Source: a virus (taxonomy: Duplodnaviria > Caudoviricetes). From it: a stretch of 64,000 bases of DNA. The notes under the pieces were generated by a model that saw only the letters and a list, made by a program, of their open reading frames with translations, ran no database searches and was not told where the DNA came from. Within the stretch, counting starts at the first letter, position 1. Every line of letters starts with the position of its first letter. The stretch is taken from the IMG/VR virus record IMGVR_UViG_3300032116_022045, one strand, 5' to 3'. The translations under genes were made by a program, and so were the position numbers. Shown here piece by piece: positions 21,851 through 56,209 of the stretch.

Positions 21851-24691
21851 TTAGATATTATCAAAAGACGCTCCTGTATTCATCACCACAAATTCAATTT
21901 TTATAAATTCTAGTGAACGGGTTGGTTTTAAGAAAATCTGTCCAGATAATTGATTTCTATCAATATCTTCAGGGTCATTTGAAAGAACAACACGGAAATC
22001 AGTTAAACCTCTTTCACTTCTAATGTTATCCAATATTGGATTAACAAGAGCTAAGAATTGGTTTCTAACCACTGAATCATTTTGTTCGAACAATAATCTA
22101 ATAGCAACAGCAGATATAAGTTTTCTTGCTTGTAATAAAAGTCTTCTAACGTTTATTCTATTAAGAGCAGTTTCTTTAACCTGCATTGTTTTATTACCCC
22201 AAATTTTAATACCATCACTTGTGAATGTTGCAATAGGGTTAATTCTATTTTCATAAAGTGTATCTCTTTGAGATAATGTTAATTTTGTTCTTGCTTGAAT
22301 AGCATCAACATCACCACGCTGAACACCTGCAACAGCAAACCAAGGGAATGCAATGTTATCAGTTAAAGCGATATTTCTAACAACATCTCTTGTAGGTGGA
22401 ACGAAAATTAAAACATTATTTTCAGTGTCATTTATTTGAACCCATGGCCAATAAGTACAAGAGTAGTTACTATCATACATATCACCTATGTTATCAACAA
22501 CATCATCAACAGTTAATAATGTTTCATTATAGTAATCAGGAGTTGTCATGATATACAATGAATCTGCTCTTTCTTGTTCAACCATTTCAATTGTTGCTTC
22601 AACAAGATTAGTGTTATCAAAGTTATCAATACCTGGTGTTGCAAATACGTTAACATTCACAGCTTCAGGGTTTCTAAATGTCCAGATACCTTCTAAGTAA
22701 GCGTAATAATCAGAAGTTATACCTAAATCACCATTAGATAATGTTCTATTAGAAAACGCACCACTAGTTAAACCAGCAGAACCATAAACACCGTTAATTA
22801 AGAATCTATCAGTATTACTTCTTCTTGTTCTGTAAACATCCCAACCATCAAAACCACCATAAGGAACTAAAGTAAACTTACGTGCAAATACTTTTTCGTA
22901 TGGACCACCAATTAAACCAGCTTCAGTTCTAAATTGAGCCACACCAGTGTCAAATAAGAACACTGGACTATATGTACCACCACTGTTATTTATAACTACA
23001 ACAACGTTATCTATTGTAGCACCAGTAGCACCAATATCCATATGGAAACCATTAGTTAAACCAGTCCAAATATCAACACCAGTAATGTTAGGAACACCTT
23101 TGTAATCAAAGAAGTCAGCGTCTACACCAACAATATTTGAAATACCTAAGAAAGCTCTTCTTTTATTTTCAAAAGTACCATAAGATTTTTTATAACTTAA
23201 TACTGGGTCAATAACTGTTGTGTTACCATTTTCTTGGTAATCACGTATTGGATAACCAATAAAACCAGCAGGGAAAGCTTCACTAGTATCTGAAGTGTCA
23301 TCTAATTCAGCTAAAACATATACAGAATTAGAAACATAAACACCATCTAATGTACCTATTCTTCTTGCAATATAATTTGCTGAAGTTGGGTCCATCGTAC
23401 AACGTGTGAAACTTTCTAATACAACTGGATTTGCATCAGTATCATAGAAAGACCTGATAACAACATCAAATTCTCTTGTATCTGGTTTAATGTTTGTTAT
23501 AGAGATTTTAAATTGCTCGTTAGCAGCATTACCATCAGAAATTGTCCAGAATCTAAATAATCTTAATACTTTATTACCACGTAATTCAGATACGACATAA
23601 GGTGTAACTGCTGGACTGTATTCTTTAAGATAATTATAGAATTCTCTATCGTAACTAATTAAAGATTGTTTAATACCTCTGATTTTACCATCAGTATTTA
23701 AATTTCTAAATAAATTATCATACAATTCTTCAACAAATAAAGCTGTTTTACCATCTTGTGCTGTTCTTCCCAATACTTTAGGTAAATAATTTCTTTGTGT
23801 TCTATCCATAGAAACATTGTAATTAAAATTACCTTGTAATGTAGAATTACCGCTTAATGAGAATGTACCAAGTGGGTCTGTAGTAGCACCACTAAACGTT
23901 GGGTCAAAAATAACACCTGTTGCACCAGTTACTTCAAAAGAAGGTAATTGAGTATTAACGTTTATTGTACCTCTAGAACGAAGTAAAGCGACTAATTGAT
24001 TTTCTACACCAGAATATACAGTACCAGAATAATATACTGTAACACCAGAGGTTGTACCAGTATTTGTGGTTGTTGTTGCACTACCAGCAGCTGTAACATA
24101 AAGATTAAATGATACACCACTAAAATTACTACCAGTTTTTTGATATACTGGTCCGATTGTAGATGTAGCACCAGTTGTTGCTGTACCTAAAAATGCTAAT
24201 TGGGTAGTTAATAAACCATCATTATATAATGTTTGAACAAATGTATCATTAGATACAACATTAGTTACTGTACCAGCAGTTGTTGCCGTATACTCAATTA
24301 AAGTTGCATATGATGAACCTGTTTGTGTGATAGTAACACTGGCTGGGTCTAAAGCAGCATCTAATGTTATACCCCATGCTAGACCAGCATCATAACCTGA
24401 AAACCCTAATACTCTTGTTACGAATAATTGGTTTGATTGAGAAAGATAAGATTTAGCTATATATGGTAATTCATATAATGGTGCGTTATTATCTTTTACT
24501 TTTGTTGCATTTAAGCCACCAAAAAATGATTGAAATTCACCATAATTTGATACAAAAATAGGTTGAAAAGCAGGTCCTTTAGTCGTTTCACCAACTAAGC
24601 CCAATGTAGTTACACCGACTTGTCTGGTAATAAAGGTTAAATCTTTTTCTGATGTATAAACACCTGGACTTACGAATACTTGTGTTGACAT
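21851..24691 (-). CDS. Contractile tail sheath protein (gp18-like)
   Basis: VFVSPGVYTSEKDLT, LVGETTKGPAFQP, YWPWV, PWFAVAG..RG, RDTLYENRINPI, WGNKT, RINVRRLL, LKPTRSLEFI. Confidence 0.95.
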   Translation of the reverse strand: MSTQVFVSPGVYTSEKDLTFITRQVGVTTLGLVGETTKGPAFQPIFVSNYGEFQSFFGGLNATKVKDNNAPLYELPYIAKSYLSQSNQLFVTRVLGFSGYDAGLAWGITLDAALDPASVTITQTGSSYATLIEYTATTAGTVTNVVSNDTFVQTLYNDGLLTTQLAFLGTATTGATSTIGPVYQKTGSNFSGVSFNLYVTAAGSATTTTNTGTTSGVTVYYSGTVYSGVENQLVALLRSRGTINVNTQLPSFEVTGATGVIFDPTFSGATTDPLGTFSLSGNSTLQGNFNYNVSMDRTQRNYLPKVLGRTAQDGKTALFVEELYDNLFRNLNTDGKIRGIKQSLISYDREFYNYLKEYSPAVTPYVVSELRGNKVLRLFRFWTISDGNAANEQFKISITNIKPDTREFDVVIRSFYDTDANPVVLESFTRCTMDPTSANYIARRIGTLDGVYVSNSVYVLAELDDTSDTSEAFPAGFIGYPIRDYQENGNTTVIDPVLSYKKSYGTFENKRRAFLGISNIVGVDADFFDYKGVPNITGVDIWTGLTNGFHMDIGATGATIDNVVVVINNSGGTYSPVFLFDTGVAQFRTEAGLIGGPYEKVFARKFTLVPYGGFDGWDVYRTRRSNTDRFLINGVYGSAGLTSGAFSNRTLSNGDLGITSDYYAYLEGIWTFRNPEAVNVNVFATPGIDNFDNTNLVEATIEMVEQERADSLYIMTTPDYYNETLLTVDDVVDNIGDMYDSNYSCTYWPWVQINDTENNVLIFVPPTRDVVRNIALTDNIAFPWFAVAGVQRGDVDAIQARTKLTLSQRDTLYENRINPIATFTSDGIKIWGNKTMQVKETALNRINVRRLLLQARKLISAVAIRLLFEQNDSVVRNQFLALVNPILDNIRSERGLTDFRVVLSNDPEDIDRNQLSGQIFLKPTRSLEFIKIEFVVMNTGASFDNI

Positions 24692-24731
24692 ATTTTTTTC
24701 CGTTTAATATTTATTTTTATAATTTCTTTAT

Positions 24732-24740
24732 TATAAATAT
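24732..24740 (-). promoter_or_regulatory. Putative late promoter (ATATTTATA) for the sheath gene
   Basis: Motif about 40 nt upstream of the sheath ATG. Confidence 0.5.
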
Positions 24741-24780
24741 TGATTTTTTAACAAAAGTTATAATAATGGAAAAAAATATT

Positions 24781-25047
24781 CTACAACTCTAAATAACCTT
24801 CATATCTATTTTGCATTTGTTCACCATTTATTCTATAATTATGAACACCTGAATATTCATTATTATACCAATAAATGTCAAAACTTATGTTTTTAAAGTT
24901 ATCTGGTTCTGGTGATGGCCAGTTATTTTTTCTAACTTCTTCAATTTTTACCAAAACATCATCTGGTATTTTCCAATCACCATCAATAGTTGAAGCTTCC
25001 CAATTATATCTATAAAAAAAATTAATGTTAAAATTATATTGTTCCAT
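24781..25047 (-). CDS. Small hypothetical protein, possible tail fibre assembly chaperone
   Basis: Trp/Tyr-rich ORF immediately downstream of the large fibre gene. ATG at 25047 preferred (the track gives 25065). Confidence 0.5.
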   Translation of the reverse strand: MEQYNFNINFFYRYNWEASTIDGDWKIPDDVLVKIEEVRKNNWPSPEPDNFKNISFDIYWYNNEYSGVHNYRINGEQMQNRYEGYLEL

Positions 25048-25051
25048 ATTA

Positions 25052-28000
25052 TTAAATATTTGCATCTATTACATTATAAGGGGTTGTTACAAAATTTGTT
25101 ATACCAGAAAATGGTGTTGTATTAAAAGCACATAGATAAGTTGACGCACTAACAGTTGTTGTTGCATTTAAACTAAGACCAGAACCTGTTGATATAGCTC
25201 TTATACCAGTTAATTTAGCATTATTTTGTATTTGTGTTATTGCACTTTGATTTGCACCTAAAGCAATAAATTCACTATCTCTAACATAACCAGAAACTCT
25301 AGCTGTCCATTGACCTGTTTTATTAATTCTTAATCCAGTACCTGAAAAACCATTAGCGGTTGAACCACCAAAAGTTCTTTGTTCTGAACCACTTGATGTT
25401 GTGGCTTCACAATTAATAAAAATACCAGTAGCTGAACCATGTGAAAAACCACCAAAAGATGTTATTGCACCACTATTTGACCTAGCCATACAATTTATAA
25501 ACCTACCTGATGCTGTATTTGACCCATTAAAACCACCTTGATTACCACCAAACGAAGCATTTGCACCACCACCAGTAGATATTGCTGTACAATTAATAAA
25601 TTCACCTGACGCATTACCAGAACTACCACCACCAAAAGACCTATTAATATTAGATGATGAAGTCATAATACAATTTAAAAATCTACCGCTAGCTGTTTCA
25701 GTTGCAATTGAAACGGCTGTACCAAAACAATATATGTTTTCAAAATAACCAGATGATGTATTAAAACCACCGTCATTAACATTACCACCAAAACCATTTA
25801 TCTGAGCTAAGTTATTTACGTTAATATTTTTAAATGTACCTGATACAGTAGCACCAGCAATACCAAAAATATTTAAACCTGGGTAATTACTATGTCTTGT
25901 GACAACATTAATATTGTTAAATACACCAGTTATAGTTGTTGAGATACCACCAATGTCAATTCTATTTGGAAATACTGGATTTACTGCACCTATTTCAGTA
26001 AAAGTATTATAATTTATATTTGTAAACGTACCAGATAAAGTTGTTGCATTAAAAAGATTATATGTTATACAATTAAAAATACTATTACTATTTGGGAAAA
26101 AACAAACCAAATCAATATTATTAAACGAACCAGATAATGTACCAGCAGCAGTTGTTCCAGTAGCACTAAATAAATTCATTATAACGTGGTCAGTAGGATA
26201 AGTAGACCCAACACCAACAGCTAAAGTTAATAATTGTATTTGACTATATCTACCAGAAAAAGTAAAACTATTATTATGTATTCTTGTATTAACACCAGCA
26301 TTTGGTCCATATTTAAAAACAATATTGTTCCATTCTTCATTAGACCTAGTTGTAGTGTTAACACCATCAATACATAATCTAGCTGTAGTATTAGCATTAT
26401 TCTCTATTGTTAAATTTTTTAACCTATAGTTAGTAATTGAACCTAATGTAACAACTGTCGCACCTGAAGAGTAAATAACAGCTAAATTAGGGTCAGATGA
26501 TAAACCAATTATATCAATAAAATTGTTTGATAATGTGAATGTTGTTGAACCTATATCATAAACACCTGGTTGTAATATAATACTATATCTATTACTATTA
26601 GATAAAGCACTACCATATGGTGTTCTTGTTGTAGCATAAGTATATGCAGCTTTTAAATTGTTTCCGTTAGTCACTTGATTAGAACCAACAGTAACAATTA
26701 AAAATGATTCACCGCTATAAGCTAAACCATCTTGATAACCACTAATTGTAAACGTTCCGCCAGTATTATTTATAAAAGTCGTTACACCATTAGCGTAAGT
26801 ACCACCTGTAACAAACACATCACTTCCGCTACCAGTGCTTGTGCTAAAACCACTAACTGAAAATGTACCACCTGTATTATTTGTAAACACAGCTGTACCA
26901 GCAGAATAGGTACCACCTGTTACAAATACATCAGTATTTCCTGTAAATAAACCTGTTACATTAAATGTACCACCAGTATTATTCGTAAACAATATATTAC
27001 CATTAGAATAAGTACCACCAGTTACTGTAACATCTATTGGTAAATTCTGATATGTTGTTGCTGATATTGTATTTGAAAATAATGTACCACCAATTGTTGT
27101 GTTTCCAGTTATCGTATATGAACCATTAAGTGTTTTTGTATTAACCCAAACATCATAACCATTATAAGCACTATAAACCAATAAATCACCATATGTAGCA
27201 CCAGTTGCAATTACATTATGCAATTCATCTAATTCATAACCATTTTGTGGTTTAACATATAATTGACCATTACCAGCATTAGCTCTTTGAACAACACCGA
27301 TAAAAACAAGATGATATGGGGCATATTGTTTTGTTTTTGTAAAACCACCTGGAGTTGAATCAAGCCAAACAATATCACCTTCTGTGTAAGAACCCAAATT
27401 TAACCCATCAAGTGTACCTTGTGTAATTACATAACCTAAACCATTTACTGCTATTGTTTCTGCAACAACACCTAAAGTTTTTGAAGATGTTGTATCACCA
27501 GTATTTGATGCTCTTTTTACAGATAGTTTATCACCACTAGCACCAAAAATATAAACAACATCACCTTTATTTAACGTAACAGAATCAACGTTTTTAACAT
27601 AAGAAAAAACAGTTTCCCCAATTTTTTGTATGACATTACCACCAGTCATTGTCACTTGAGGAACACCAAAATCAGAATTCCAAGATATTTCACCAACATT
27701 TGGTGTTCCAGTATATGATGTGTTAAAACCTAAATAATTTATATTAGAAACACTTGTTGCTGTTACTGCATTAAAATTTGAATTACCAGTGACAGATAAA
27801 TTACCGTTAATTGTTAACCCTGTTAATGTATTAAATAAAACATTAAATGTACCACCAGTATTATTTCTAAATGTGAATGTATTATTAGAATATGTACTAC
27901 CAGTAACATTTACATCTATTGGTAAACCATAATAAGTTGTTGCAGAGACACTAGAACCACTAAATCCACCAGCAGCAGTAATAAATGATGTTATTACACC

Positions 28001-31000
28001 AGCAGTATTTTGACCTTCTAATAAATGTGTTGTTAAATCTGGACTTCCAGTACCATTTTGAATTGTTAACGCACCTAAAGTTGAATTTATTACGATTTCT
28101 GGAGTGGGACTATTATTATATGCTTGTTGAAGAGTAGTTGTTGATAAACCAGCTGTACCACCAAGAGCTTCACCAAATTTAGAAACTAATGTAAATATAG
28201 CATCATTTGTATTTGATAAATCAGTAGCACCATCTTTAACAGTTAAAAAACCAATAAGTATACCATTATCTCTATTATTGGAATATTCCACAAAAACTTC
28301 ACTTTGTATACCAGCTAAAGCTTTAGCTAATGTTGGATAATGAGTTTGACCATATTGTATTCTAATTAAACCTGTTGGAAATAAATAAATTCTTTGTGTT
28401 GTAAAAGCACCAGCACCTGGTACATCTGTAACGACTCCATTAACGTCATACTTTGTAGTATCAATTGTTGTTGTATCACCTAATGTACCACCTGTTTGAG
28501 TCCTATATGCAAATGTTGCAGGTGAACTACCAGATATAGTAACACTATTAGGATTAAGTTGGTCAGCATACCAATTAATACCATTACCCCATAAAACACC
28601 AGATGAAATGTTTATATTTAAATTAGCACCGTTAGGGCTAGGTATTACACCAATGTTTATTAATTTAAAAGATGTCCACATATCACGTAAAGCAGACATT
28701 GGACTAACATCAAAATCAGTTGTATTGTTTACATTAAGTATTGTTGTTCTACTAGGATGAACTACCTTACCTAAATATATATTTTGTCTTCTCTGTTGAG
28801 GTGTTGGAAAACTATTTTGTAAAGAAACTGTTGATGCGCTATTAATTAAAACATATGTTGCATCAGATGAACTTAAATAAGGTGTTGTTATCCCAGTCGT
28901 ACCACTATATATAATATTTATTACTTCTGGTAATGTAGCTTTTTCATATGTATTATTGACTATCCATCCTTTTAAAGGTGCTATTGAAAATAATGTATTG
29001 GAAACTTTTGTTAACCCAGTAAATTCATAAACCCCAGTTGATATTACATTACCTTCAAGTATATTTCTTTCAATACTAGTTAATGATAAGCTATTATCTT
29101 CATTATTAATATTAACATATATCTTACCTGTTGTTGAACCAGTTTCAATCACATAACCTATTTCATTAGTCCTAGAATTAAAAGATAAAGAAGAAGTAGT
29201 TGAAACATAATCACCATCATTATCATCAGATAAATATAATATATCACCGTTTGAAAAATTATTAAGGGTTATACCACTTAAAATACCATTATTTATGATT
29301 AAACCTTCTGAATTATTGGGTATGTTTTCAGCGGATAAACCAACGGGTCTTCTAGCATAAATAGTATTAATATTTTTAGCTAATGCGATACTTGGCAATC
29401 CATTTGATGTACCTGTTATTGTTACAACCTTACCTTTATTAATTTGGCTACCAGTGCTATTATAAACTCTGGTATATAGTTGTTGACCCATAGCAATAGG
29501 TACATTATTATTTAATATATCATAATAAGATAATGCTTTAGAACCATTATCAAAAAATACTCTACCACCAATTGCTATTGGGTTTGTTGTTCCAGTATTA
29601 AAATCAATATAATTAGTTACATTAATTGTATTAGCTGTTAAACCAGAATTAAATATAGTAGCACCAGTAACCGTACCACCACTTAATGGTAAATAAACAC
29701 CATTAAAACTATTTTGTGTTGTAAAACCAGTTAATGTAAATGTACCACCAGTATTATTTATAAAATTTGCAATACCAGTGTTTGAATTATAAGTACCTCC
29801 TGTAACAAACACATCAGTAGCACCAGTATAAAAACCATTTATTGTAAACGTACCACCAGTATTATTTCTGAAAGTAGCTGAACCATTAGAATAAGTACCA
29901 CCTGTAACAAACACATCAGTATTTCCTGTGAATAAACCTGTTACATTAAAAGTACCACCAGTATTATTTATAAATAATATATTACCATTAGAATAAGTAC
30001 CACCTGTTACAAATACATCAGTAGCACCAGTATAAAAACCAGTTAATGTAAACGTACCACCAGTATTATTTCTGAAAGTAGCTGAACCATTAGAATAGGT
30101 ACCACCAGTAACGAATACATCAGTAGCACCAGTATAAAAATTATTTACAGTGAATGTACCACCAGTGTTATTTGTGAAAGTGGCTATACCAGTATTTGGG
30201 TTATACGTACCACCTGTTACAAATACATCAGTATTTCCTGTAAATAAACCTGTTACGTTAAACGTACCACCAGTATTATTTGTAAATAATATGTTACCAT
30301 TAGAATAAGTACCACCTGTTACAAATACATCTGTAGCACCAGTATAAAAATTATTTATTGTAAATGTACCACCAGTATTATTTGTAAATGTTGCAACACC
30401 AGTACTTGGATTGTATGTCCCACCAGTAACAAACACATCTGTATTTCCTGTAAATAACCCAGTTATATTAAACGTGCCCCCAGTATTATTTGTAAACAGT
30501 ATATTACCATTAGAATAAGTACCACCTGTAACAAACACATCTAAAGGTAAGTTTTGATATGTGGTTGCTGATATTGTATTTGCAGTTATACCACCAGTAA
30601 AATTTGTTGCACCAGTTACTGTACCACCAGTAAATTGTGTTGAAGTACTAAAACCACTTAAAGTAAATGTACCACCAGTATTATTTGTGAAAATAGCTAT
30701 ACCAGTATTTGAATTATAAGTACCACCAGTAACAAATACATCTGTATTTCCTGTGAATAAACCATTAATTGTGAATGTACCACCACTATTATTTATTAAT
30801 GTTATAGAACCATTAGAATAAGTACCACCAGTAACAAATATGTCTGTAAAACCGCTTATACTTATGTTAGAACCATTTTTTAAACCTAATGATAATGTTT
30901 GACCGTTATAAGTTCCACCAGTAAGTGAATTACTATCAATAATATCACTTAATTGTGTTGAACCGCTAAAATAATTTGATGCCGTTATGTTATTAGCGTT

Positions 31001-31180
31001 TATATTATTATTTGTGAATATATCACCAATAACTGAAACTGTACCTACACCTAACAATATGCTTGTATTACCACTACAAGATAATATAGCGTTTGAATAA
31101 ACGCCAGTACAAGCTGTAAATGTTGGTTCAAGATTATCTACTGTTTGTATTATAAATGTTTCGTTTATATTATAACTCAT
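25052..31180 (-). CDS. Giant tail fibre / surface appendage protein with internal repeats
   Basis: 2042 aa, Thr/Gly/Asn-rich, 14 copies of a DVxVTGGTY...NNTGGTF repeat, and a C-terminal region resembling a beta-helix (FGG...ASG.F.NC repeats). Confidence 0.8.
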   Translation of the reverse strand: MSYNINETFIIQTVDNLEPTFTACTGVYSNAILSCSGNTSILLGVGTVSVIGDIFTNNNINANNITASNYFSGSTQLSDIIDSNSLTGGTYNGQTLSLGLKNGSNISISGFTDIFVTGGTYSNGSITLINNSGGTFTINGLFTGNTDVFVTGGTYNSNTGIAIFTNNTGGTFTLSGFSTSTQFTGGTVTGATNFTGGITANTISATTYQNLPLDVFVTGGTYSNGNILFTNNTGGTFNITGLFTGNTDVFVTGGTYNPSTGVATFTNNTGGTFTINNFYTGATDVFVTGGTYSNGNILFTNNTGGTFNVTGLFTGNTDVFVTGGTYNPNTGIATFTNNTGGTFTVNNFYTGATDVFVTGGTYSNGSATFRNNTGGTFTLTGFYTGATDVFVTGGTYSNGNILFINNTGGTFNVTGLFTGNTDVFVTGGTYSNGSATFRNNTGGTFTINGFYTGATDVFVTGGTYNSNTGIANFINNTGGTFTLTGFTTQNSFNGVYLPLSGGTVTGATIFNSGLTANTINVTNYIDFNTGTTNPIAIGGRVFFDNGSKALSYYDILNNNVPIAMGQQLYTRVYNSTGSQINKGKVVTITGTSNGLPSIALAKNINTIYARRPVGLSAENIPNNSEGLIINNGILSGITLNNFSNGDILYLSDDNDGDYVSTTSSLSFNSRTNEIGYVIETGSTTGKIYVNINNEDNSLSLTSIERNILEGNVISTGVYEFTGLTKVSNTLFSIAPLKGWIVNNTYEKATLPEVINIIYSGTTGITTPYLSSSDATYVLINSASTVSLQNSFPTPQQRRQNIYLGKVVHPSRTTILNVNNTTDFDVSPMSALRDMWTSFKLINIGVIPSPNGANLNINISSGVLWGNGINWYADQLNPNSVTISGSSPATFAYRTQTGGTLGDTTTIDTTKYDVNGVVTDVPGAGAFTTQRIYLFPTGLIRIQYGQTHYPTLAKALAGIQSEVFVEYSNNRDNGILIGFLTVKDGATDLSNTNDAIFTLVSKFGEALGGTAGLSTTTLQQAYNNSPTPEIVINSTLGALTIQNGTGSPDLTTHLLEGQNTAGVITSFITAAGGFSGSSVSATTYYGLPIDVNVTGSTYSNNTFTFRNNTGGTFNVLFNTLTGLTINGNLSVTGNSNFNAVTATSVSNINYLGFNTSYTGTPNVGEISWNSDFGVPQVTMTGGNVIQKIGETVFSYVKNVDSVTLNKGDVVYIFGASGDKLSVKRASNTGDTTSSKTLGVVAETIAVNGLGYVITQGTLDGLNLGSYTEGDIVWLDSTPGGFTKTKQYAPYHLVFIGVVQRANAGNGQLYVKPQNGYELDELHNVIATGATYGDLLVYSAYNGYDVWVNTKTLNGSYTITGNTTIGGTLFSNTISATTYQNLPIDVTVTGGTYSNGNILFTNNTGGTFNVTGLFTGNTDVFVTGGTYSAGTAVFTNNTGGTFSVSGFSTSTGSGSDVFVTGGTYANGVTTFINNTGGTFTISGYQDGLAYSGESFLIVTVGSNQVTNGNNLKAAYTYATTRTPYGSALSNSNRYSIILQPGVYDIGSTTFTLSNNFIDIIGLSSDPNLAVIYSSGATVVTLGSITNYRLKNLTIENNANTTARLCIDGVNTTTRSNEEWNNIVFKYGPNAGVNTRIHNNSFTFSGRYSQIQLLTLAVGVGSTYPTDHVIMNLFSATGTTAAGTLSGSFNNIDLVCFFPNSNSIFNCITYNLFNATTLSGTFTNINYNTFTEIGAVNPVFPNRIDIGGISTTITGVFNNINVVTRHSNYPGLNIFGIAGATVSGTFKNINVNNLAQINGFGGNVNDGGFNTSSGYFENIYCFGTAVSIATETASGRFLNCIMTSSSNINRSFGGGSSGNASGEFINCTAISTGGGANASFGGNQGGFNGSNTASGRFINCMARSNSGAITSFGGFSHGSATGIFINCEATTSSGSEQRTFGGSTANGFSGTGLRINKTGQWTARVSGYVRDSEFIALGANQSAITQIQNNAKLTGIRAISTGSGLSLNATTTVSASTYLCAFNTTPFSGITNFVTTPYNVIDANI
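29714..30844 (-). repeat. Array of ten 34-36-aa coding repeats (DVFVTGGTY...NNTGGTF)
   Basis: Seen directly in both the translation and the DNA. Four more copies lie at about 27820-27916 and 26732-27034. Confidence 0.92.
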
Positions 31181-32238
31181 GATGTTGTAGTTCCGTTTAA
31201 AACAAATTTTCCAGTTGTTAAATAATTTTTAAATACTTGTATATCTATTAAATCATTATTACTGAAAATTAATGGGGTTGTCAATACTGTACCATCAAAT
31301 ATTACAGAATTATTTCTTCTTATAATTATTCTACTAATATTTTCAATAGTATCTAAACTATTTAATATGGTTTCGTATTGAGCATTAAAATTAAATCTTG
31401 GGAATGATTTTGGTTTAAAAACGAATGTTAATTGAATAGTATTACCAACTCTTAATGGTTCAAATATAACGTCATTATATAATAATCTTTCATCTGTTTC
31501 AAGTGTTGTTACAACTCTATTTAATGTTGGAACAACTTCAAAATCATCTTCATTAACCAAATAACCTAAAAGTTTAATTTCAAATGATTGAACATAAAAA
31601 CGAGTTTCTTCAAATTCGTTAATATTACTTTCATCACTAATACCTTCTAATAAAAGTGGCATTGGATGACCTTTAACATTTATATAACATTGTCTAGATT
31701 GGAAAGCTCTTTGAATTAAACCATTAAATTTATTAAGGTCTTTCATTCTATTTGTAAATATTCTAACATTGTATGTTATATCAACAGAAACTGGTTGTGG
31801 TATCTTATATAAATCGACACCTTTCCTTACACCATCCCATGTTGGTACTTTCATATAGGTATATGTTCTATATGGTGGGATATTATATAAACCAGCTTGA
31901 TTTTGACCTTGTTGAATATCTGGTTGTCTAACAACAGTTATAAATGGTAAATCTATATTTCTGTATTCATCAGCAAATTGCCAAGTTTTTGTGAATTCAC
32001 TCCATCTTTGTATTGTTAAAAAGATAACTGGAATTTTTCTACCATCAATACTTAAATAAACTCTTTCATCATTATTAAAGAAATCTAAAAAAGCTTCATC
32101 CATGTCTTCTTCATTAACACCTCTAGGTAAAAAAGTACCATTTGATGAAATATCATCAAGAATCTCTTGTCTTCTTTCAAAACCTATTTTTTGGTTTAAT
32201 ATATTAATATTATTTCTATATCCTTTAGGTAAAGCCAT
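31177..32238 (-). CDS. Tail terminator / sheath stabiliser (gp15-like)
   Basis: DMDEAFLDF, LPFITVVR, IPQPVSVDITYNVRIFT...DLNKF, next to the neck gene. Confidence 0.62.
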   Translation of the reverse strand: MALPKGYRNNINILNQKIGFERRQEILDDISSNGTFLPRGVNEEDMDEAFLDFFNNDERVYLSIDGRKIPVIFLTIQRWSEFTKTWQFADEYRNIDLPFITVVRQPDIQQGQNQAGLYNIPPYRTYTYMKVPTWDGVRKGVDLYKIPQPVSVDITYNVRIFTNRMKDLNKFNGLIQRAFQSRQCYINVKGHPMPLLLEGISDESNINEFEETRFYVQSFEIKLLGYLVNEDDFEVVPTLNRVVTTLETDERLLYNDVIFEPLRVGNTIQLTFVFKPKSFPRFNFNAQYETILNSLDTIENISRIIIRRNNSVIFDGTVLTTPLIFSNNDLIDIQVFKNYLTTGKFVLNGTTTS

Positions 32239-32241
32239 TTA

Positions 32242-32760
32242 TTAAAAACCTCTAAATTCATCACTAGTTACAGCGGCACAAACTATTGTTCTAAATGCAC
32301 CTCTATAACCCATTATAGTATGTTTATTATCGTAATTTTTTAAGTTATCATTAACAACACTAAAATATCTTATCTCTTTTTCAGTTATTGGATAACCGAT
32401 ATAATCACCATAATTAATATCAACATTAAGTTCGTTTAATTGAGCTGAATGTACGCTAAATGTAAACTTACCATCATAAATATACCTTAAACTACCATTG
32501 TCATTATATGTGTTATTTATTGGTTCATCAGCAATTGGTAACACTTTTAATTCAATAGGCGGAAAAAATCTAATACCATCAACTGATGCTTCACCATAAA
32601 CATTATCAAATTCAGTTAATTGTCTATCAACTTTATATAAAATAACAGTAAAATTACCATCGCCCTCAATGGCTTCTCTAGACATGCTGATTTCTAAATT
32701 GAAGTCTTCTTCTGAAAACCATTTATTAATTCTTGTTATAGGTACTTGTTTATTTGACAT
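32242..32760 (-). CDS. Neck / head-closure protein (gp14-like)
   Basis: VILYKVD...DNVYGEA...FFPPIEL...INYGDYIGY. Confidence 0.65.
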   Translation of the reverse strand: MSNKQVPITRINKWFSEEDFNLEISMSREAIEGDGNFTVILYKVDRQLTEFDNVYGEASVDGIRFFPPIELKVLPIADEPINNTYNDNGSLRYIYDGKFTFSVHSAQLNELNVDINYGDYIGYPITEKEIRYFSVVNDNLKNYDNKHTIMGYRGAFRTIVCAAVTSDEFRGF

Positions 32761-32773
32761 AATGATATTTTAA

Positions 32774-32782
32774 TATAAATAC
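32774..32782 (-). promoter_or_regulatory. Putative late promoter (GTATTTATA)
   Basis: Motif 13 nt upstream of the neck gene ATG. Confidence 0.5.
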
Positions 32783-35454: not shown

Positions 35455-35473
35455 TTATTTTATTTTTTTTTAG

Positions 35474-35482
35474 ATATTTATA
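35474..35482 (+). promoter_or_regulatory. Putative late promoter (ATATTTATA)
   Basis: Motif 15 nt upstream of the ATG at 35498. Confidence 0.5.
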
Positions 35483-35497
35483 ATAAAAATAAATATC

Positions 35498-39600: not shown

Positions 39601-40281
39601 TTTTAGAGCATCAATTAAATGAAAAAATTTAATTATATTACTTCTTTCAGAATTTCTTCTTTCTTGTGGTGTATTACCAGTTGTTTCTAAAATAATTTTA
39701 GAATTTCGATTATCACTAACCCCTATTTGAAATATAGCATGTTTACTAGCAACAAGACCTTCTGTCTCTAAGTCAAATTGTAATCTATGAAGGTCATTAT
39801 AATCATCAAAACCTTTGAAAAGTCTTTTACCTGTTTGTATAAAAAATTGTTCAACAGGTGAAAACATAACAAAATATTTTTTATATGTCTCATTAAAGAC
39901 ATCAACACCACCTTCTTTAAAAAATTGTATTAAATCGTTATAAGAATTTTTACATTTAGCGATAAATTTATAACCATTCTCCATCCTTTCTGGTGTATAA
40001 CCTTCAGGATTACTAGTCTTTAATCTAGTAATTTTCACATCAAATTTTTTTGATGCTTCATATATTTTAACTCTATTACCTTTATATAATACTTTAACAA
40101 CTTCTTCTTTAAACCATAAAAAAGGCACAAACTTGTGGTTCTCAATGTATTTACCCTTATCTGGGTCATTAATTATTAAACTTATAATTGGTTTTCCATA
40201 TTGCGGTTCTGCTGCTACAATATATTTTTGTGGGTCTGAACCATGTAAAAAATCTTCAATTATTTCTTTATTGATATCCAT
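36637..40281 (-). CDS. polB: Family B DNA polymerase
   Basis: ExoI FDLETEG, ExoII YNSESFDW, ExoIII YLYDD, region II LDFAALYP, region III KILANSWFG, region I LDTDG, plus an acidic C-terminal extension. Confidence 0.95.
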   Translation of the reverse strand: MDINKEIIEDFLHGSDPQKYIVAAEPQYGKPIISLIINDPDKGKYIENHKFVPFLWFKEEVVKVLYKGNRVKIYEASKKFDVKITRLKTSNPEGYTPERMENGYKFIAKCKNSYNDLIQFFKEGGVDVFNETYKKYFVMFSPVEQFFIQTGKRLFKGFDDYNDLHRLQFDLETEGLVASKHAIFQIGVSDNRNSKIILETTGNTPQERRNSERSNIIKFFHLIDALKPDIITGYNSESFDWKFLFERCERLNIPITEIAKTLSPYHKIYRRDSTLKLGSETEKYKQTYMYGYNIIDISHAVRRAMSINSDIKSWTLKYITKYSEIAKENRVYVPGDKINSTWVDKKNQYAFNENTGDWYVISEKRPLKENYEIVTGDYVIKRYLYDDLWETEQIDNIFNQASFLLSKILPTSFMRSSTMGTAGQWKLIMAAWSYQNDLAIPETQKKREFTGGLSRLLQVGYAKNVVKLDFAALYPKTQLTWGIFPDLDISGVMRGILTYVVDTRDEFKFLTGKHKKIVKKLQEKLKNEKISINEIIKEIDENKFLSNLFDKKQLPLKILANSWFGSYGAPYIFNWGDTNSAEETTCRGRQSLRLMVRHFTEKYNFKPLVLDTDGCNFSFPDNVNDIKYVAKGNHWKTVNDAGKELVGLEAVLAEFNEEYMEGRMGLDIDDICNSTINFARKNYANDIDGKIKLVGNSIKSKKMPLYIEEFINNGIRMLLDGEGYKFINYYQEYVDKIYNYQIPLVKIASKSKVKINVTDYLKKAKLKNKAGNPMPKQAHMELVVKNEIDVDLGDTIYYVNIGTKKGQGDLKTIRRDKMSKKAVKEYVELHGHEPNFTTKTELNCKLIDSLRVEQDLETIKEIESLKLSLNILSPDSEEYKSLIETINQLNDNLYIDEYNVLRYLEAFNKKVKPLLVCFHPDVRKDILITTVKVKNPETKQVTEKLKPKHIFEKEQCELVSGMPFKEVDQDSYEKLMTMEDKEIRFWDSVNKQPNYMEADEWDTIRKDYIQRMIKEKADGIVSEKAKLDDIFRKLEVIDLQDIIKTNVLPKTISIIANISTEAPYMLVSNKWEEPLCPIEDIFKYESIAIDRNEYYKEHKIEKHKDKYEQWINYVISKSLLNGYDDIFSATTKLTSISEIKLTVNNEIDEEKEVMTIKDVDTDEDSDDIESDEIIDEKYNEDIILEDEYDDTFAENIEEISEPVITIDEVDEWGF

Positions 40282-40297
40282 ATAAGTTATATTTTAA

Positions 40298-40328
40298 CAA
40301 ATATACTAAATAGATAGTAGAAACACAA
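40298..40328 (-). promoter_or_regulatory. Bacteroidota sigma70-type promoter for the DNA polymerase gene
   Basis: TTG-N20-TATATTTG on the coding strand. Confidence 0.7.
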
Positions 40329-40350
40329 CAATAAACATAAAAAAAAAATT

Positions 40351-40372
40351 AACTTTGTAACATTACAAAGTT
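40351..40372. other. Perfect 10-bp inverted repeat (terminator or operator)
   Basis: aactttgtaa-ca-ttacaaagtt, followed by a U-run on the minus strand and lying just upstream of the polB promoter. Confidence 0.55.
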
Positions 40373-40422
40373 ACTAAAAAAAATCGACAAAAACAAATAT
40401 TTTTTTAATTTTAATTAAAATA

Positions 40423-40794
40423 TTATTTTTTTATATCACCATCTAATATGTTTATATATAATGATTCTCTAATAGGGACAATTAGTGTTCCAGAACCATC
40501 TAAAAACTCTATAGTAAAAGTACCAACATATTTACCTGGTTTTGATGTTTCATTTGAAGTAAATTTATAAGTTATATAAAATTCTTCACCAACACAATTT
40601 ATTGGTATTACTTGTTGTAAACCAGCAGTTTTTTTAGCTATTCTTTTAACACCAGTAACGACATCCGCCATAGTAAAATATATATTAGCATTTTGGATTG
40701 CAGAAAAAAATCTATGATAATCGTTACGACCATCAGAAATTAATTCCATTTTCAAAACTGGTAATGTTGCGTTTTTGTTTATAAAAAATTCCAT
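40423..40794 (-). CDS. BppU-N-like baseplate/fibre attachment protein
   Basis: ITYKFTSNETSKPGKYVGTFTIEF..G.LIVP pattern, downstream of the fibre genes. Confidence 0.55.
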   Translation of the reverse strand: MEFFINKNATLPVLKMELISDGRNDYHRFFSAIQNANIYFTMADVVTGVKRIAKKTAGLQQVIPINCVGEEFYITYKFTSNETSKPGKYVGTFTIEFLDGSGTLIVPIRESLYINILDGDIKK

Positions 40795-40800
40795 GTTTTA

Positions 40801-42657
40801 TTAATTTATACCGTATTTATTCTTATCTAAATCAAAATTATATTTTATGTTTTCATATGGTAAATCACATATGTTAAATTTAAATTGAGACATACTACCA
40901 ATAAAGGTACCAGCAAAATTTTGTTCTATTGGTAATCCTCTATCAGCCATATCTAACCCATCAAATGTTTGACTATCAATTAACCCTTGAGAACCACCAC
41001 CTAAACTAAAATTAAACGGAACACCTACTTGTTTTAAATAATGTTCATCAAGTCTTTTAGCGATAAACTCTGGAAAATTATCAACAGTAAATTTTAATTT
41101 AGAATTAATATAAAACATTAGTTTACCTGTTCTTTGTGGTTTTGTTTGTAATTCACAATCAGTTAAATAATTTGTTGTATATCTTATTGTAATATATGAC
41201 CATTCATCAAAAGTAACTAAACCAGATAAAGAATATTCTTCTTTAATAGAAACGTTTGATTCATATAATCTTTGACCTGTGGATGCTGTATAACATGTTC
41301 CAGTAACTGTTAATAGTCTATAACCTATTTTACCATCATCTGTTATTATAAACGCTAATGCGTTATCAACAATATCTTTTTTGTAATCAACAACTGTTTG
41401 TGGTTTTGACCTACCACTAAAACTACATTTTGTTTCAGTACCTAAACCATCATTTGGTCCACAACATGATGTGCATGTACAACCTGAAGATGAAAAACCA
41501 GCACCCCTACCATAAATTAGAAAAGGGTTTTGATAATTATTAACAACTTCAACAGTTTTTTTAATTGCAATACCACCGCCATGATAACTACAAACTGTTT
41601 GTGTACCTAAACCATCATTACTTAATAAATTACAAGTACAATTAGTTGAACTATTTTGTTGCATTGTTTGACCAGTGTTAATTAACACTGTACCAACTGA
41701 ACCAGTTATTGTTGGTCCTCTATTATCTTGTGCTCTACCATAAATTAAAAAAGGATTTGTAATTATTTCTATTTTAACTTGTGGTGGAATTAAAGGTATT
41801 GCAAAACCATTTTCTTCTAAAACAGATATATCATCTTCTTTTATGGTTGTACACCATGTATTAACGGTTCCAGTACAACCAGAATCTTGAGTACAACCAC
41901 TAGTACAACCAGTACTATTACCATAAAATTGATTCCAAAATTTATTTTCAGCTCTTGTACCCATATAAAAGAAAATACCTTTATTGTCTGGATAAACTTC
42001 ATTTAATGTTGTACCTGTAAAACCAGTAAATGAACATTCTTGTCTAGGTCTTAACCAAAATTCGGCTGACCATGCTTCGTTAACCCTTGTTGGTAATACT
42101 TTATAGTTTGTACCATCTAACTTATAAAAACCTTGAAAAAAACCACCACATAGTTCTTCATAAACACCTTCAGTACCACCAGTAAGTGTTCTCCTAGGAT
42201 AAACGTAATTACCAGTTGTTCCAGTAACTAAATTCATTGTAAATCTAGTATCACCAGATGTAATAACCAATGTAGATGCTGTTAATGCACTAAGTAATGC
42301 TAAATTACTGGTATCAGATTGGTCTTTTTGAAATGTTACTAAACCATTATCAATACCTGTTAACCCTAATGTAGTCATTGTGTAACCAGTATTAACAGCA
42401 CCATTCCAATCAACCAAACTTAATAATGTACCTGTACTTGGATTGTTATTTTTATATGTTAAAGTATTATTAAAATCGTACCAAACGACAAAACAATCAC
42501 CTGAAGACAATGAAGATGAAGACCCAGCACCATTACCACCACCAACACTTTTTAAATATCTAACATTCTCATCAGTAGCTAAATAAAAATCCCAGTAATC
42601 AGAATTTGATAACTTTAAATCTATTTTGTTAAAATTGAAATTCTTAATATTCCCCAT
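40801..42657 (-). CDS. Virion structural protein with LamG/ConA-like domain and Cys-rich insert
   Basis: WSAEFWLRP...GIFFYMG, DEWSYITI...GKLMFYINSKL...FIGSMSQFKF, with many Cys and [ST]GxT motifs. Confidence 0.6.
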   Translation of the reverse strand: MGNIKNFNFNKIDLKLSNSDYWDFYLATDENVRYLKSVGGGNGAGSSSSLSSGDCFVVWYDFNNTLTYKNNNPSTGTLLSLVDWNGAVNTGYTMTTLGLTGIDNGLVTFQKDQSDTSNLALLSALTASTLVITSGDTRFTMNLVTGTTGNYVYPRRTLTGGTEGVYEELCGGFFQGFYKLDGTNYKVLPTRVNEAWSAEFWLRPRQECSFTGFTGTTLNEVYPDNKGIFFYMGTRAENKFWNQFYGNSTGCTSGCTQDSGCTGTVNTWCTTIKEDDISVLEENGFAIPLIPPQVKIEIITNPFLIYGRAQDNRGPTITGSVGTVLINTGQTMQQNSSTNCTCNLLSNDGLGTQTVCSYHGGGIAIKKTVEVVNNYQNPFLIYGRGAGFSSSGCTCTSCCGPNDGLGTETKCSFSGRSKPQTVVDYKKDIVDNALAFIITDDGKIGYRLLTVTGTCYTASTGQRLYESNVSIKEEYSLSGLVTFDEWSYITIRYTTNYLTDCELQTKPQRTGKLMFYINSKLKFTVDNFPEFIAKRLDEHYLKQVGVPFNFSLGGGSQGLIDSQTFDGLDMADRGLPIEQNFAGTFIGSMSQFKFNICDLPYENIKYNFDLDKNKYGIN

Positions 42658-44423
42658 TAAAAATCTTCTAAAGCAACTCTTTTCCAGTTGTTACTGGTTT
42701 TTATGTATAAATAATTATCATCTCTTGTGATAGAACCATCAGTACCATTTGTATCAGTAGATGATGATGGCGTGTAAATCGGTATAATTAATTCTTTTGG
42801 TATTAAAGATGTGTTTGTAACCCAATTACCATTGTTATCAACAATAAATTCAGAATTTTTATCTGTATCTACACCATTAATAACGATAATACCACCACCA
42901 TTAGCTGATTCATGAGAACCATTATAATTTAATTCAATATTATTATCTTCAGCAACAACTGTTTGAGTTGTTATGTTAATGTTGCTAACATTCGTATTAT
43001 TGTCTGACAATTGTTTAATAGCTTCAACAATAATAGGAATAACACAATCTGTATGTACACCTTTATACCCACTTTTTTCATTTTTAAATACTAATAATGG
43101 CTCAACATCTTCAACTTGTTGAGCAATAAAACCAAATCTAGGCTTTGTACCACCAGCTGACTTATCAATCCATTCATATGTTACACCACTTAATCCTTTT
43201 ACTATATCTAAAGAATTTTTTATTGATTTTATGTTTTCTTTCAAATTAATATCTGATGTGCTAGATGTTAAAAAACCATTAGCGTCAATATTAACATTAT
43301 TAAAAAAAGCACCAGAACCTAAATTATCAATGTTTAAATTAACCACATGTGTTACATCATTTGCTTTACTACTAATACTTGGACCTAAAACAACTGAATC
43401 GTCATGTGTCGCCTGACTAGCATTACCAAACGAAAAAGAACAAAGTCCTGTTGCTTGACTAGTATCACCACCAGCAAAAGAATAATCACCAGATGCTATT
43501 GTTGCTTTACCAGAAGCATGTGATGCAACACCAGAAGCTTCTGTAGAAGTACCTTCAGCATGTGAAGCATCATTAGAAGCTATTGTTGAAATACCTTCAG
43601 CATGTGAATAATTACCAGTAGCTATTGTATCGCTACCTTCAGCATGTGAGAAAGCACCACCAGCAATTGTTTTAAAACCTTCAGACAAACTAGTGTCACC
43701 AGAAGATATTGTTTCTCGACCCAAAGATATTGAATAATTACCAGTAACTAGTGAATTATAATTAGATAATGCTAAAGAATATTGACCAGTACCACCAGAC
43801 CAATAACCTGTAACACCAGTTAAAGCTTTCCATTCTCCTTTACCCTCAGATGTTGAACAAACCCAAACATACCCAATAACAGGTGTTTTATTAATTATTA
43901 AATCATTTGTTCTAGTTATTCCAGATACATCAACCCAAATAGTTCTACCATTAAAATCTAAACTATTACCACTATAAACTGTTAATAATGTTGTTAAAAT
44001 ACCACCACTATAATTACCAGAACCATCAACAGTCATACCTGTAACTAAAACATCATAAGAAACACCTGTATATGTTAATGCAATGGTATTACCATCAATA
44101 ACTGTTGTTGTGTTTGCACTAAATACAAGATTAACTGTTTGAGTTACAGCAGAATTAGATGGTGTTATAGCAGATAATAACGGGTCACCAATAGACATAA
44201 TCGGATAATTCCAATTAAATATTGTTGTACCAGAATTACCTGAAAAACTACTTGTAAAAAAAACATATGTTTCACTAACACCAGTACTACTGGTATCAAT
44301 ACCAGATGGTAATTGTGAAAAAGGAACACCAAAAACTGTACCACCAGATAAATAGGTGGTTGTTTCAATGTTTTGTTTTATTTGTCTATTATTAGAATAA
44401 TCTAATTTTGTTAAGAATGGCAT
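42657..44423 (-). CDS. Trimeric tail fibre with YadA-like head repeats and a peptidase S74 chaperone domain
   Basis: SHAEG..T.A.G 14-aa repeats, and SDINLKENI...GVTYEW...FGFIAQQVE. Confidence 0.8.
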   Translation of the reverse strand: MPFLTKLDYSNNRQIKQNIETTTYLSGGTVFGVPFSQLPSGIDTSSTGVSETYVFFTSSFSGNSGTTIFNWNYPIMSIGDPLLSAITPSNSAVTQTVNLVFSANTTTVIDGNTIALTYTGVSYDVLVTGMTVDGSGNYSGGILTTLLTVYSGNSLDFNGRTIWVDVSGITRTNDLIINKTPVIGYVWVCSTSEGKGEWKALTGVTGYWSGGTGQYSLALSNYNSLVTGNYSISLGRETISSGDTSLSEGFKTIAGGAFSHAEGSDTIATGNYSHAEGISTIASNDASHAEGTSTEASGVASHASGKATIASGDYSFAGGDTSQATGLCSFSFGNASQATHDDSVVLGPSISSKANDVTHVVNLNIDNLGSGAFFNNVNIDANGFLTSSTSDINLKENIKSIKNSLDIVKGLSGVTYEWIDKSAGGTKPRFGFIAQQVEDVEPLLVFKNEKSGYKGVHTDCVIPIIVEAIKQLSDNNTNVSNINITTQTVVAEDNNIELNYNGSHESANGGGIIVINGVDTDKNSEFIVDNNGNWVTNTSLIPKELIIPIYTPSSSTDTNGTDGSITRDDNYLYIKTSNNWKRVALEDF

Positions 44424-56208: not shown

Positions 56209-56209
56209 A

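Follow-up and report, generated by a model that had tools for sequence, protein, structure and literature searches.

A candidate [ST]-[GA]-x-T modification tag in tail proteins of an uncultured jumbo phage and its association with two glycosyltransferase genes

Relation to described glycosylation systems

TibC is known to heptosylate TibA in the cytoplasm; the modified Ser residues, in QN-S-GGAV and NT-S-AAV, lie at turns of beta-helix repeats (PMC4358343). This BAHT system (TibC/Aah on TibA/AIDA-I) joins a soluble cytoplasmic enzyme to many sites on a beta-rich surface protein (PMC4358343), and in this it resembles the arrangement proposed here for an uncultured jumbo phage, of which we analysed a stretch of 64,000 nucleotides (the window); in the phage the modification is putative, and the products of its glycan island are soluble by prediction only. 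The S-G-G-A and S-A-A-V turns of TibA, in which the acceptor Ser precedes small residues, often follow Asn and may be compared with NN-[ST]-G-G-T in the phage. However, TibC modified Ser and not Thr, whereas the phage motif is Thr-dominated; BAHT sites have no conserved Thr at position 4; and their carriers are secreted adhesins, whereas the phage candidates are tail proteins. No match to a GT9-type enzyme (PF01075) was found in the window ORFs or in the relatives G001-G003.

Virion O-glycosylation by phage-encoded transferases has been described for mycobacteriophages (Freeman et al. 2023, via PMC12619734). In that account the transferase genes lie near structural genes and a glycan coat on the virion is proposed, which parallels the putative coat of our phage. 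The mycobacteriophage glycans are placed there on C-terminal tails of capsid and tail-tube subunits, and the account describes no short sequon of this kind. In our phage, by contrast, the capsid protein lacks the motif, as judged from the relative G002, and internal turns of sheath insertions, fibres and a lectin-like protein hold the candidate sites.

The Bacteroidota sequon D-[ST]-[AILVMT] is likewise short and Ser/Thr-centred, but its glycan is assembled on a lipid carrier and transferred in the periplasm, which requires membrane enzymes, whereas the phage island is without predicted membrane proteins. We rejected this sequon as a candidate, because it occurs 10 times against 16.2 expected in the four motif-rich proteins and Asp stands at -1 in 1 of 88 motif sites; the first-pass annotation had correctly set the two motifs apart. 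In Chlorovirus PBCV-1 glycosylation is N-linked and lies on the major capsid protein, unlike the phage, where the motif is missing from the capsid and Ser or Thr is the candidate acceptor. The likeness to PBCV-1 is that of a large virus with its own soluble transferases and sugar-modifying enzymes (PMC5852040) and with a non-canonical acceptor signal, which in the phage is putative. Glycoproteins have been detected in the jumbo phage XacN1 (PMC5852040), and the hosts of related aquatic jumbo phages are probably Bacteroidota (PMC12619734).

YadA-like heads and phage fibres also carry short Gly turn signatures that recur in trimeric beta fibres, but there hydroxyl residues at both flanks are not required. 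The phage motif lies mostly outside recognised structural repeat families: the YadA-like part of the 588-aa fibre holds one of its eight copies, and the core family region of the sheath holds none. To our knowledge, the candidate sequon is unlike any described one.

The motif in four tail proteins

The first-pass annotation had counted [ST]-G-x-T by hand in four predicted surface-exposed virion proteins (about 8, more than 50, about 11 and about 8 copies), and the computed counts of 8, 61, 11 and 8 match; each exceeds the expectation from whole-protein shuffles (p <= 0.001, Table 1). The remaining 39 window ORFs of at least 150 aa have 0-1 copies each, as it had stated for other proteins, and the other proteins of the phage show no avoidance of the motif (17 vs 15.5 expected), which is a point against a tag. 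The label of surface-exposed virion proteins is only partly borne out: the tail proteins are enriched, but the gp23-like major capsid protein of the close relative G002 has no motif. The four proteins have no significant mutual sequence similarity (best E 0.02-0.06), so homology does not explain the shared motif, again as annotated.

Table 1. Motif-rich tail genes and candidate modification genes in the window
Feature	Coordinates	Strand	[ST]-G-x-T copies (expected)	Remarks
Tail sheath, 946 aa	21851..24691	-	8 (1.4)	Pfam and PHROG sheath matches, residues 659-944 only
Sheath segment, residues 543-573	22973-23065			clade-specific
Sheath segment, residues 173-270	23882-24175			clade-specific
Fibre, 2042 aa	25052..31180	-	61 (10.4)	no Pfam or PHROG family
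Lectin-like (ConA/LamG jelly-roll) tail protein, 618 aa	40801..42657	-	11 (1.4)	Foldseek
Fibre, 588 aa	42657..44423	-	8 (1.6)	YadA-like head repeats and S74 domain
GT-B-like glycosyltransferase, candidate reader	46871..48150	+		main ORF 47170-48150; weak Glyco_trans_1_4 match
GT2_5-family glycosyltransferase, candidate second reader or partner	50372..51562	+		PF13712, E 1.8e-34
Variable island tail	51562..63742	+		methyltransferase-rich; runs off the window

The enrichment persists when the proteins are shuffled in 20-, 40- and 80-aa blocks, which shows that local T/G richness is not the cause; under both kinds of shuffle it outlasts control for T/G/S composition. It also depends on residue order, with the reversed T.G[ST] occurring 1, 1 and 2 times in the three non-repetitive proteins, and 60 distinct sites are left once the fibre repeats are collapsed. 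When all three-residue patterns in six gapped shapes were scanned without bias in the sheath, the lectin-like protein and the 588-aa fibre, SG.T and TG.T took ranks 1 and 2 of the gapped patterns (p 2e-7 and 5e-7).

The refined pattern is [ST]-[GA]-x-T, which occurs in the four tail proteins at about six times its chance frequency. Position 1 is exclusively S or T, without enrichment of N, D, V, A, G or I; position 2 favours G (5.9-fold) and A (3-fold) and no other residue; position 3 accepts any residue; and position 4 is T (5.9-fold), with S at 1.75-fold. Ser at position 1 is encoded by AGY as well as TCN codons, so the selection is at the protein level.

In the sheath, all motifs are confined to the two clade-specific segments, and the conserved core (residues 660-936) has none. 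Six to seven of the sites are conserved in 79 homologues, with interchange of S and T at position 1 and of G and A at position 2; these conserved sites account for the whole excess, with fixed positions, no excess elsewhere and no turnover. Most motifs of the 2042-aa fibre lie in a repeat of about 35 aa (VTGGTY..NNTGGTF..TG[NA]T; residues 96-530, 1086-1130 and 1381-1490), and outside the repeats there are 12 against 4.3 expected; the monomer model of this fibre has a pLDDT of 45. The AF2 model of the lectin-like protein (pLDDT 69) matches the PilC lectin module, CBM40 and BoNT Hc jelly rolls in Foldseek, and four of its motifs are [ST]-G-C-T units within an invariant Cys cluster. The stop of the 588-aa fibre gene overlaps the start of the lectin-like gene. 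The head repeats of this fibre (residues 220-358) match the BpaC head in phmmer, while the YadA_head match of 21.8 bits is below the 25-bit cut-off. One motif (residue 412) lies in its C-terminal S74 intramolecular chaperone domain (residues 390-443), a domain that is cleaved off in known S74 fibres.

Motif enrichment is a family trait. Among 80 IMG/VR sheath homologues the mean is 7.1 motifs against 1.4 expected, 120 close lectin-like homologues average 12.5, and 149 distant lectin-like representatives hold 881 in total against 82.5 expected. In the lectin-like family (more than 700 clusters at 50% identity) motifs start at 59 distinct alignment columns, 11 of them conserved, and outside the conserved sites the observed/expected ratio is 3.75, set against 59 reverse-order matches. 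The excess is not general to myovirus tails: T4 virion proteins have 18 motifs (12.2 expected; none in gp18), the Mel-JY01 structural block has 3 (about 5.2 expected), and the whole genome of LR756508.1 has 60 (45.2 expected).

Motif-free lectin-like proteins fall into three separate clusters (A, B and C) of the family tree. At aligned turns they have (N/D)-G-x-(N/other), while equally distant motif-rich homologues have [ST]-G-x-T; at site 145, Gly is retained in 25 of 29 motif-free and 45 of 46 motif-rich sequences. Because motif-free homologues keep the Gly turn without its hydroxyl flanks, the hydroxyl residues are dispensable for the fold.

Glycosyltransferase genes and their co-occurrence with the motif

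The glycosyltransferase island named in the first-pass annotation is real and is confirmed by family matches. Its GT-B-like gene lies 4.5 kb, and its GT2_5 gene 7.7 kb, from the lectin-like gene. The first 29 codons of the GT-B-like gene (46871-46960) stand in another frame, and this frame break near the start counts against a tag-reading role. The island tail contains three GT2 genes, GT1-like and GT11-like genes, a UDP-glucose dehydrogenase, two FkbM and two other methyltransferases, and an epimerase/dehydratase. It varies among motif-rich genomes, FkbM being limited to 3 of the 9 complete or near-complete relatives, whereas the GT-B-like/GT2_5 pair is conserved, so that the candidate reader, if any, is the pair and not the whole island. 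No island ORF has a 19-residue hydrophobic window typical of a membrane span, and every product is soluble by prediction; the family searches gave no match to a flippase, polymerase or oligosaccharyltransferase.

Across relatives, presence of the motif largely follows presence of the two transferase genes. A GT-B-like orthologue (61-68% identity) and a GT2_5 gene are each present as a single copy in all 8 complete or near-complete motif-rich genomes, and neither is found in G004 or in LR756508.1. G004 is a complete, syntenic sister genome that is motif-free, with no motif in the lectin-like protein, 2 in the sheath (1.3 expected) and 69 in the whole genome (49.7 expected); one 393-aa protein of G004 is an exception with 6 motifs against 0.86 expected. 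At the motif-free locus L132 the flanking WYL, HD and dUTPase genes are kept and the GT-B gene is missing. The pair or one of its members lies within 10 kb at 46 of 57 motif-rich loci, where transferases thus stand beside structural genes, vs 1 of 7 motif-free loci, or 1 of 8 if L202 is included (Fisher p ~0.001 for 46/57 vs 1/7, ignoring phylogeny). Whole-genome support among motif-free lineages comes from cluster C only (G004 and L132), clusters A and B having short flanks or mixed evidence. The expectation that relatives without the transferases lack the motif therefore agrees with G004, LR756508.1 and the eight motif-rich genomes, but P0184 is a counter-example, a motif-free homologue that adjoins a GT2_5 gene and a weak GT1-like gene.

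Interpretation of the motif

According to these comparisons, [ST]-[GA]-x-T is a probable modification tag, most likely for O-glycosylation, a reading that we hold with about even confidence. The tag would sit on glycine turns that already existed in the outward-facing tail regions, namely in the sheath insertions, in both fibres and in the lectin-like protein. A soluble phage glycosyltransferase would read it in the cytoplasm and O-glycosylate one of the two hydroxyl residues, and the downstream variable transferases and methyltransferases may then extend and decorate the glycan. The best candidates for the enzyme are the GT-B-like and GT2_5 proteins. By analogy with the S-[GA]-[GA] sites of TibC, the acceptor is more likely to be position 1. 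The enrichment, the residue preferences, their persistence across the families, the overlay on turns and the co-occurrence with the two genes are observed, whereas we infer any modification, as well as its reader enzyme, its acceptor residue and what a coat would do. The first-pass reading of the motif as an acceptor signal thus gains from the real island and from the co-occurrence with the pair, and loses from the motif-free capsid, the fixed sheath sites and P0184. More tentatively, and with somewhat less than even confidence, we propose a four-residue O-glycosylation sequon written by the GT-B-like/GT2_5 pair on tail-surface glycine turns in aquatic jumbo phages of a very large clade, with at least three joint gains or losses of tag and enzymes.

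The main rival to the tag is purely structural, and we consider it unlikely, though the best placed of the alternatives: the motif would cap strand ends or beta-turns, as is typical of the Thr/Gly-rich beta modules of this lineage's fibres and sheath decorations, and would have spread by repeat duplication and lineage-specific drift, and the co-occurrence with transferases would be lineage confounding. In the confident domain of the lectin-like model the motifs do sit at strand ends and hairpin loops. Over all sites, the motif is preceded by a hydrophobic residue or Asn and often followed by an aromatic one, and [ST]-G turns are used by YadA-like heads. In the big fibre the motif is integral to the beta-repeat and regularly spaced within its 35 aa, an observation that speaks against a tag. 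The full account of the sheath excess by conserved positions, the weak likeness of sheath residues 544-600 to the fibre repeat (E 0.06) and the mild excess in T4 gp37 (6 vs 2.1) fit a cap as well, and the independent lineage contrasts number only about three or four, one with an exception. However, a structural cap does not easily explain why motif-free clades keep Gly at homologous turns with N/D at position 1 and anything at position 4, or why the phage, unlike a generic Asx/ST turn, shows no enrichment of N and D at position 1. The G/A interchange at position 2 argues for a small-residue requirement and not a positive-phi one, new sites keep appearing in variable lectin-like regions, and the sheath and fibre orthologues in G004, Mel-JY01 and T4 lack the motif.

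It is quite improbable that a tag of this kind is read by something other than a glycosyltransferase, through phosphorylation or acylation, as a signal for an assembly chaperone, or as a Thr-pair surface that orders ligand, ice or water, with the glycan island serving DNA hypermodification or host-surface changes. The candidate transferases lie amid nucleotide-metabolism genes (HD, dUTPase-like and GMP-reductase-like), so DNA could be their target instead, and phage transferases that build glycans on DNA are known (bioRxiv 10.1101/2023.12.21.572611). P0184 has a transferase pair without the motif, and the four [ST]-G-C-T units in the invariant Cys cluster suggest metal or disulfide chemistry there. 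Against this, the window yielded neither a kinase nor an acyltransferase nor any other candidate reader, and across genomes the two transferases are the only genes seen to follow the motif. A statistical or compositional artefact of Thr/Gly/Ser-rich repetitive proteins is effectively refuted, for although 45 of the 61 copies in the big fibre come from duplicated repeats and T and G are more abundant in the four proteins than in the remaining ones, the excess outlasts block shuffles, repeat collapse, order reversal and the unbiased pattern scan and is replicated in hundreds of homologues, the distant ones included.

If O-glycosylation at [ST]-[GA]-x-T is true, it would mark the first description of a sequon-directed glycan coat on a phage tail, the documented phage case using, in the account cited above, C-terminal tails instead of a sequon. 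If the two-enzyme core reads the tag, a simple portable rule would predict the glycan coats of uncultured phages from sequence alone, the large sugar-enzyme islands of huge phages would have a reason, and cytoplasmic glycoengineering would gain a small tag-and-enzyme pair. Because the lectin-like family is very large, any such coat would affect the adsorption, stability and recognition of abundant aquatic phages.

Enrichment of the motif in tail proteins of one clade

The tetrapeptide [ST]-G-x-T occurs 8, 61, 11 and 8 times in the sheath, the 2042-aa fibre, the 618-aa lectin-like protein and the 588-aa fibre, respectively, where 1.4, 10.4, 1.4 and 1.6 are expected. These values match the hand counts of the first-pass annotation, and the near absence of the motif from other window proteins was likewise confirmed, with 0 or 1 copy in each of the 39 other ORFs. 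Composition, named beforehand as the explanation that could undo the observation, leaves the excess standing. After shuffling within blocks of 20 to 80 residues it is still 3.5- to 6-fold, the reversed pattern is rare, collapsing the repeats leaves 60 distinct motif sites, and the 2042-aa fibre has 12 motifs outside its repeats versus 4.3 expected. Moreover, of all three-residue patterns in six gapped shapes across the three non-repetitive proteins, SG.T takes first place and TG.T second. The enrichment is solid as an observation. The phage's other proteins do not avoid the motif (5 versus 7.8 expected in the window; 17 versus 15.5 in the relative G001).

The source of the window is an uncultured, AT-rich myovirus (about 27% G+C) that is distantly T4-like. 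No close DNA-level relative was found among public phages; hundreds of relatives, whose genomes measure some 290-370 kb, are present in IMG/VR and the protein collections. Sheath and fibre homologues carry on average 7.1 and 19 motifs, versus 1.4 and 4.6 expected, and the relatives' hub, tape-measure-like and other proteins do not exceed expectation. In G001 (205 kb), two tail-gene blocks account for the whole excess (93 versus 20.7), the remaining genome giving 1.0-1.1. This genome also encodes three further motif-enriched proteins (715 aa, 11 versus 1.6; 509 aa, 5 versus 0.5; 1223 aa, 6 versus 1.2), for which Pfam and PHROGs gave no match and whose homologues would lie upstream of the window. 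Among the control phages, T4 virion proteins have 18 motifs versus 12.2 (gp18 and gp34 none), the Mel-JY01 structural block 3 versus about 5.2, and the whole LR756508.1 genome 60 versus 45.2. The motif is a trait of this clade and not of myovirus tails generally. A close relative's gp23-like capsid protein is motif-free; therefore, the pattern marks tail surfaces, and the earlier assignment to surface-exposed virion proteins holds for these and not for every exposed virion protein.

Features of the window and of related genomes
Feature	Location	Strand	Remarks
Tail genes	1-44 kb	minus	
Hub protein	tail block	minus	M23 peptidase domain
Baseplate-hub-like protein	tail block	minus	
Sheath	21851-24691	minus	sheath-family match is the C-terminal 290 residues
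2042-aa fibre	25052-31180, tail block	minus	
Family-B DNA polymerase	same 1-44 kb block	minus	
618-aa lectin-like protein	40801-42657, tail block	minus	
Its Cys cluster	41872-42390		residues 249-269
588-aa fibre	42657-44423	minus	YadA-like repeats, S74 chaperone domain
WYL-domain protein	45768-46202		heads the island
Sugar island	from 47 kb	plus	
GT-B-like gene	46871/47170-48150	plus	29-codon start 46871-46960; main frame open from 46921, ATG at 47170
HD, dUTPase-like and GMP-reductase-like genes	sugar island	plus	
GT2_5 gene	50372-51562	plus	
Three more GT2 genes	sugar island	plus	
GT1-like and GT11-like genes	sugar island	plus	
UDP-glucose dehydrogenase	sugar island	plus	
Two FkbM and two other methyltransferases	sugar island	plus	
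Epimerase/dehydratase	sugar island	plus	
G001, three further enriched proteins	IMGVR_UViG_3300034198_017033, 94380-102346 (L095:1380-9346)		
G004, 393-aa protein	IMGVR_UViG_3300021255_000114, 31114-32295		
Family-B polymerase of a relative	L126:12168-16670		
IS605 OrfB/TnpB-like gene of a relative	L133:8674-9801		

Residue choice and placement of the sites

Position 1 accepts S or T but none of N, D, V, A, G and I; position 2 is G, less often A, and no other residue; position 3 is unconstrained; and position 4 calls for T, S being only weakly enriched, so that the motif is better written [ST]-[GA]-x-T. Alignments of 120 lectin-like homologues and of 79 sheath homologues each show the G/A and S/T interchanges independently. 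Position-1 Ser is encoded by both codon families, which places selection at the protein level, and position-4 codons follow the background; a DNA-level explanation was rejected on these grounds. The sole codon bias, ACT preferred over ACA before GGT, stems mostly from the duplicated fibre repeats (position-1 Thr is ACT in 72% versus 36% overall in the four motif genes).

Profile searching found 704 clusters in the lectin-like family, and among the 149 representatives listed we counted 881 motifs versus 82.5 expected, with 20 representatives having none. Motif-free and motif-rich members can be equally far from the window protein (31-36% identity), and the motif-free ones form three separate clusters in the family tree. 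Their aligned turns keep the Gly, preceded by N or D and not followed by a conserved Thr, where motif-rich proteins have [ST]-G-x-T. The hydroxyl residues are therefore superimposed on turns that do not need them to fold, and from these alignments it appears that structure alone does not explain the motif. A pooled pattern scan of motif-free versus motif-rich homologues was uninformative, being swamped by conserved family columns. Across the close family, motif starts are spread over 59 alignment columns, only 11 of which are conserved, and outside the conserved sites observed/expected is 3.75; in the sheath, six to seven fixed sites account for the whole excess. That the motif is a purely structural signature of the lineage is possible but rather unlikely in our estimate. 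In one relative, a motif-free lectin-like gene has an IS605 OrfB/TnpB-like gene as its immediate upstream neighbour.

The model of the 618-aa protein is a ConA/LamG-type jelly roll (pLDDT 69), closest in fold to a pilus lectin module, CBM40 and the receptor-binding domains of clostridial neurotoxins. Where it is confident, the motifs occupy strand ends and hairpin loops, such as SGDT between strands 130-132 and 138-143; the remainder lie in low-confidence Cys-rich loops. One of these loop regions, also modeled at low confidence, holds a cluster of C251, C255, C261 and C269, the first three each inside an [ST]-G-C-T unit; across 58 homologues three Cys are invariant and one nearly so, and the cluster may bind metal or form a disulfide knot. 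The sheath motifs all fall in clade-specific segments beyond the conserved core, which, judging from that position and from the T4 gp18 architecture, would face outward. The AlphaFold2 model of residues 96-535 of the 2042-aa fibre (pLDDT 45) was uninformative on repeat fold or exposure, and an ESM Atlas feature search with the fibre repeat scored below 0.9. Besides its 35-aa repeats, this fibre shares with relatives a conserved module of the type LSGGTVTG.T.F..GLTANTISATTY.NLP, found repeatedly between repeat blocks. As modeled, the motifs are turn elements in loops, which speaks against the buried turns named beforehand as a refutation, and these loops may be exposed.

Co-occurrence with a transferase pair

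The first-pass annotation had asked whether relatives without the transferases also lack the motif, and in the whole genomes compared here those without the pair do. Exactly one PF13712 (GT2_5) gene and one GT-B-like orthologue (61-68% identity to that of the window) are present in each of eight complete or near-complete motif-rich genomes. The relative G004, a complete 373-kb genome with terminal repeats that is syntenic with the window and has a motif-free lectin-like protein, contains neither gene, only one sub-threshold GT2 match, and its motif content is at background in the sheath (2 versus 1.3), the large fibres and the whole genome (69 versus 49.7). LR756508.1 lacks both the pair and the excess. 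This whole-genome evidence for the motif-free state covers one of the three motif-free clusters. One 393-aa protein of G004 has 6 motifs versus 0.86, though the genome otherwise shows neither excess nor pair.

The loci around the lectin-like gene give a similar picture. At least one pair member lies within 10 kb in 46 of 57 motif-rich loci versus 1 of 7 motif-free ones (1 of 8 with L202), loci that are not phylogenetically independent, and six of six further motif-rich loci have the GT-B-like gene. The motif-free locus L132 keeps the WYL, HD and dUTPase neighbours and is missing the GT-B gene; in L127 and L129, which are motif-rich and equally distant, the GT-B-like gene, the GT2_5 gene and a third shared gene stand directly upstream. 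A WYL homologue adjoins the lectin-like gene in motif-rich and motif-free relatives alike (L127, L129, L131, L132). The motif-free homologue P0184, which has transferase genes nearby, is a real exception to the link, and a related-locus search with it found nothing; its contig encodes a 1021-aa PhoH with homing-endonuclease domains (Hom_end_hint, LAGLIDADG_3). FkbM methyltransferases occur in only three of nine complete or near-complete relatives, so the long island tail varies between genomes, and the motif is tracked by the pair alone.

In the window the GT-B-like gene is split: its start (...DRTGVG, then TAA) is in a different frame from the main ORF. Most relatives have a single uninterrupted frame of 413-424 aa, and two (G014, G015) have an in-frame TAA; the break, at 46955-46965, may come from a sequencing error, mark a pseudogene or be a programmed shift. 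No island product has a membrane-span-like hydrophobic stretch, an NCBIfam search gave the island enzymes no specific names, and phmmer against PDB sequences returned nothing usable for the big fibre, the GT-B-like protein or GT2_5. The family-B polymerase of one relative reaches 1500 aa, with only a faint intein match.

Known systems and the reading of the motif

The motif is not the Bacteroidota O-glycosylation sequon, and none of the literature searched describes [ST]-[GA]-x-T as a sequon. Glycoproteins are detectable in the jumbo phage XacN1 (PMC5852040). Mycobacteriophage virion glycosylation, as described in PMC12619734, is placed on the C-terminal tails of the capsid and tail-tube proteins, an arrangement different from that in the window. 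The nearest mechanistic precedent is BAHT hyperglycosylation, in which the TibC acceptors are the Ser residues of QN-S-GGAV and NT-S-AAV in the repeats of TibA (PMC4358343); however, its GT9 enzyme is absent here, so BAHT is at most an analogue and the window system is not a member of that family.

As a candidate glycosylation sequon, the motif gains real comparative support, short of proof, from its co-occurrence with the pair and from the overlay on turns. A different reader for the tag, or a different target for the island, takes up what probability the remaining readings leave. At about an even chance, the motif would be a tag read by a modifying enzyme of the phage, most likely the GT-B-like/GT2_5 pair.
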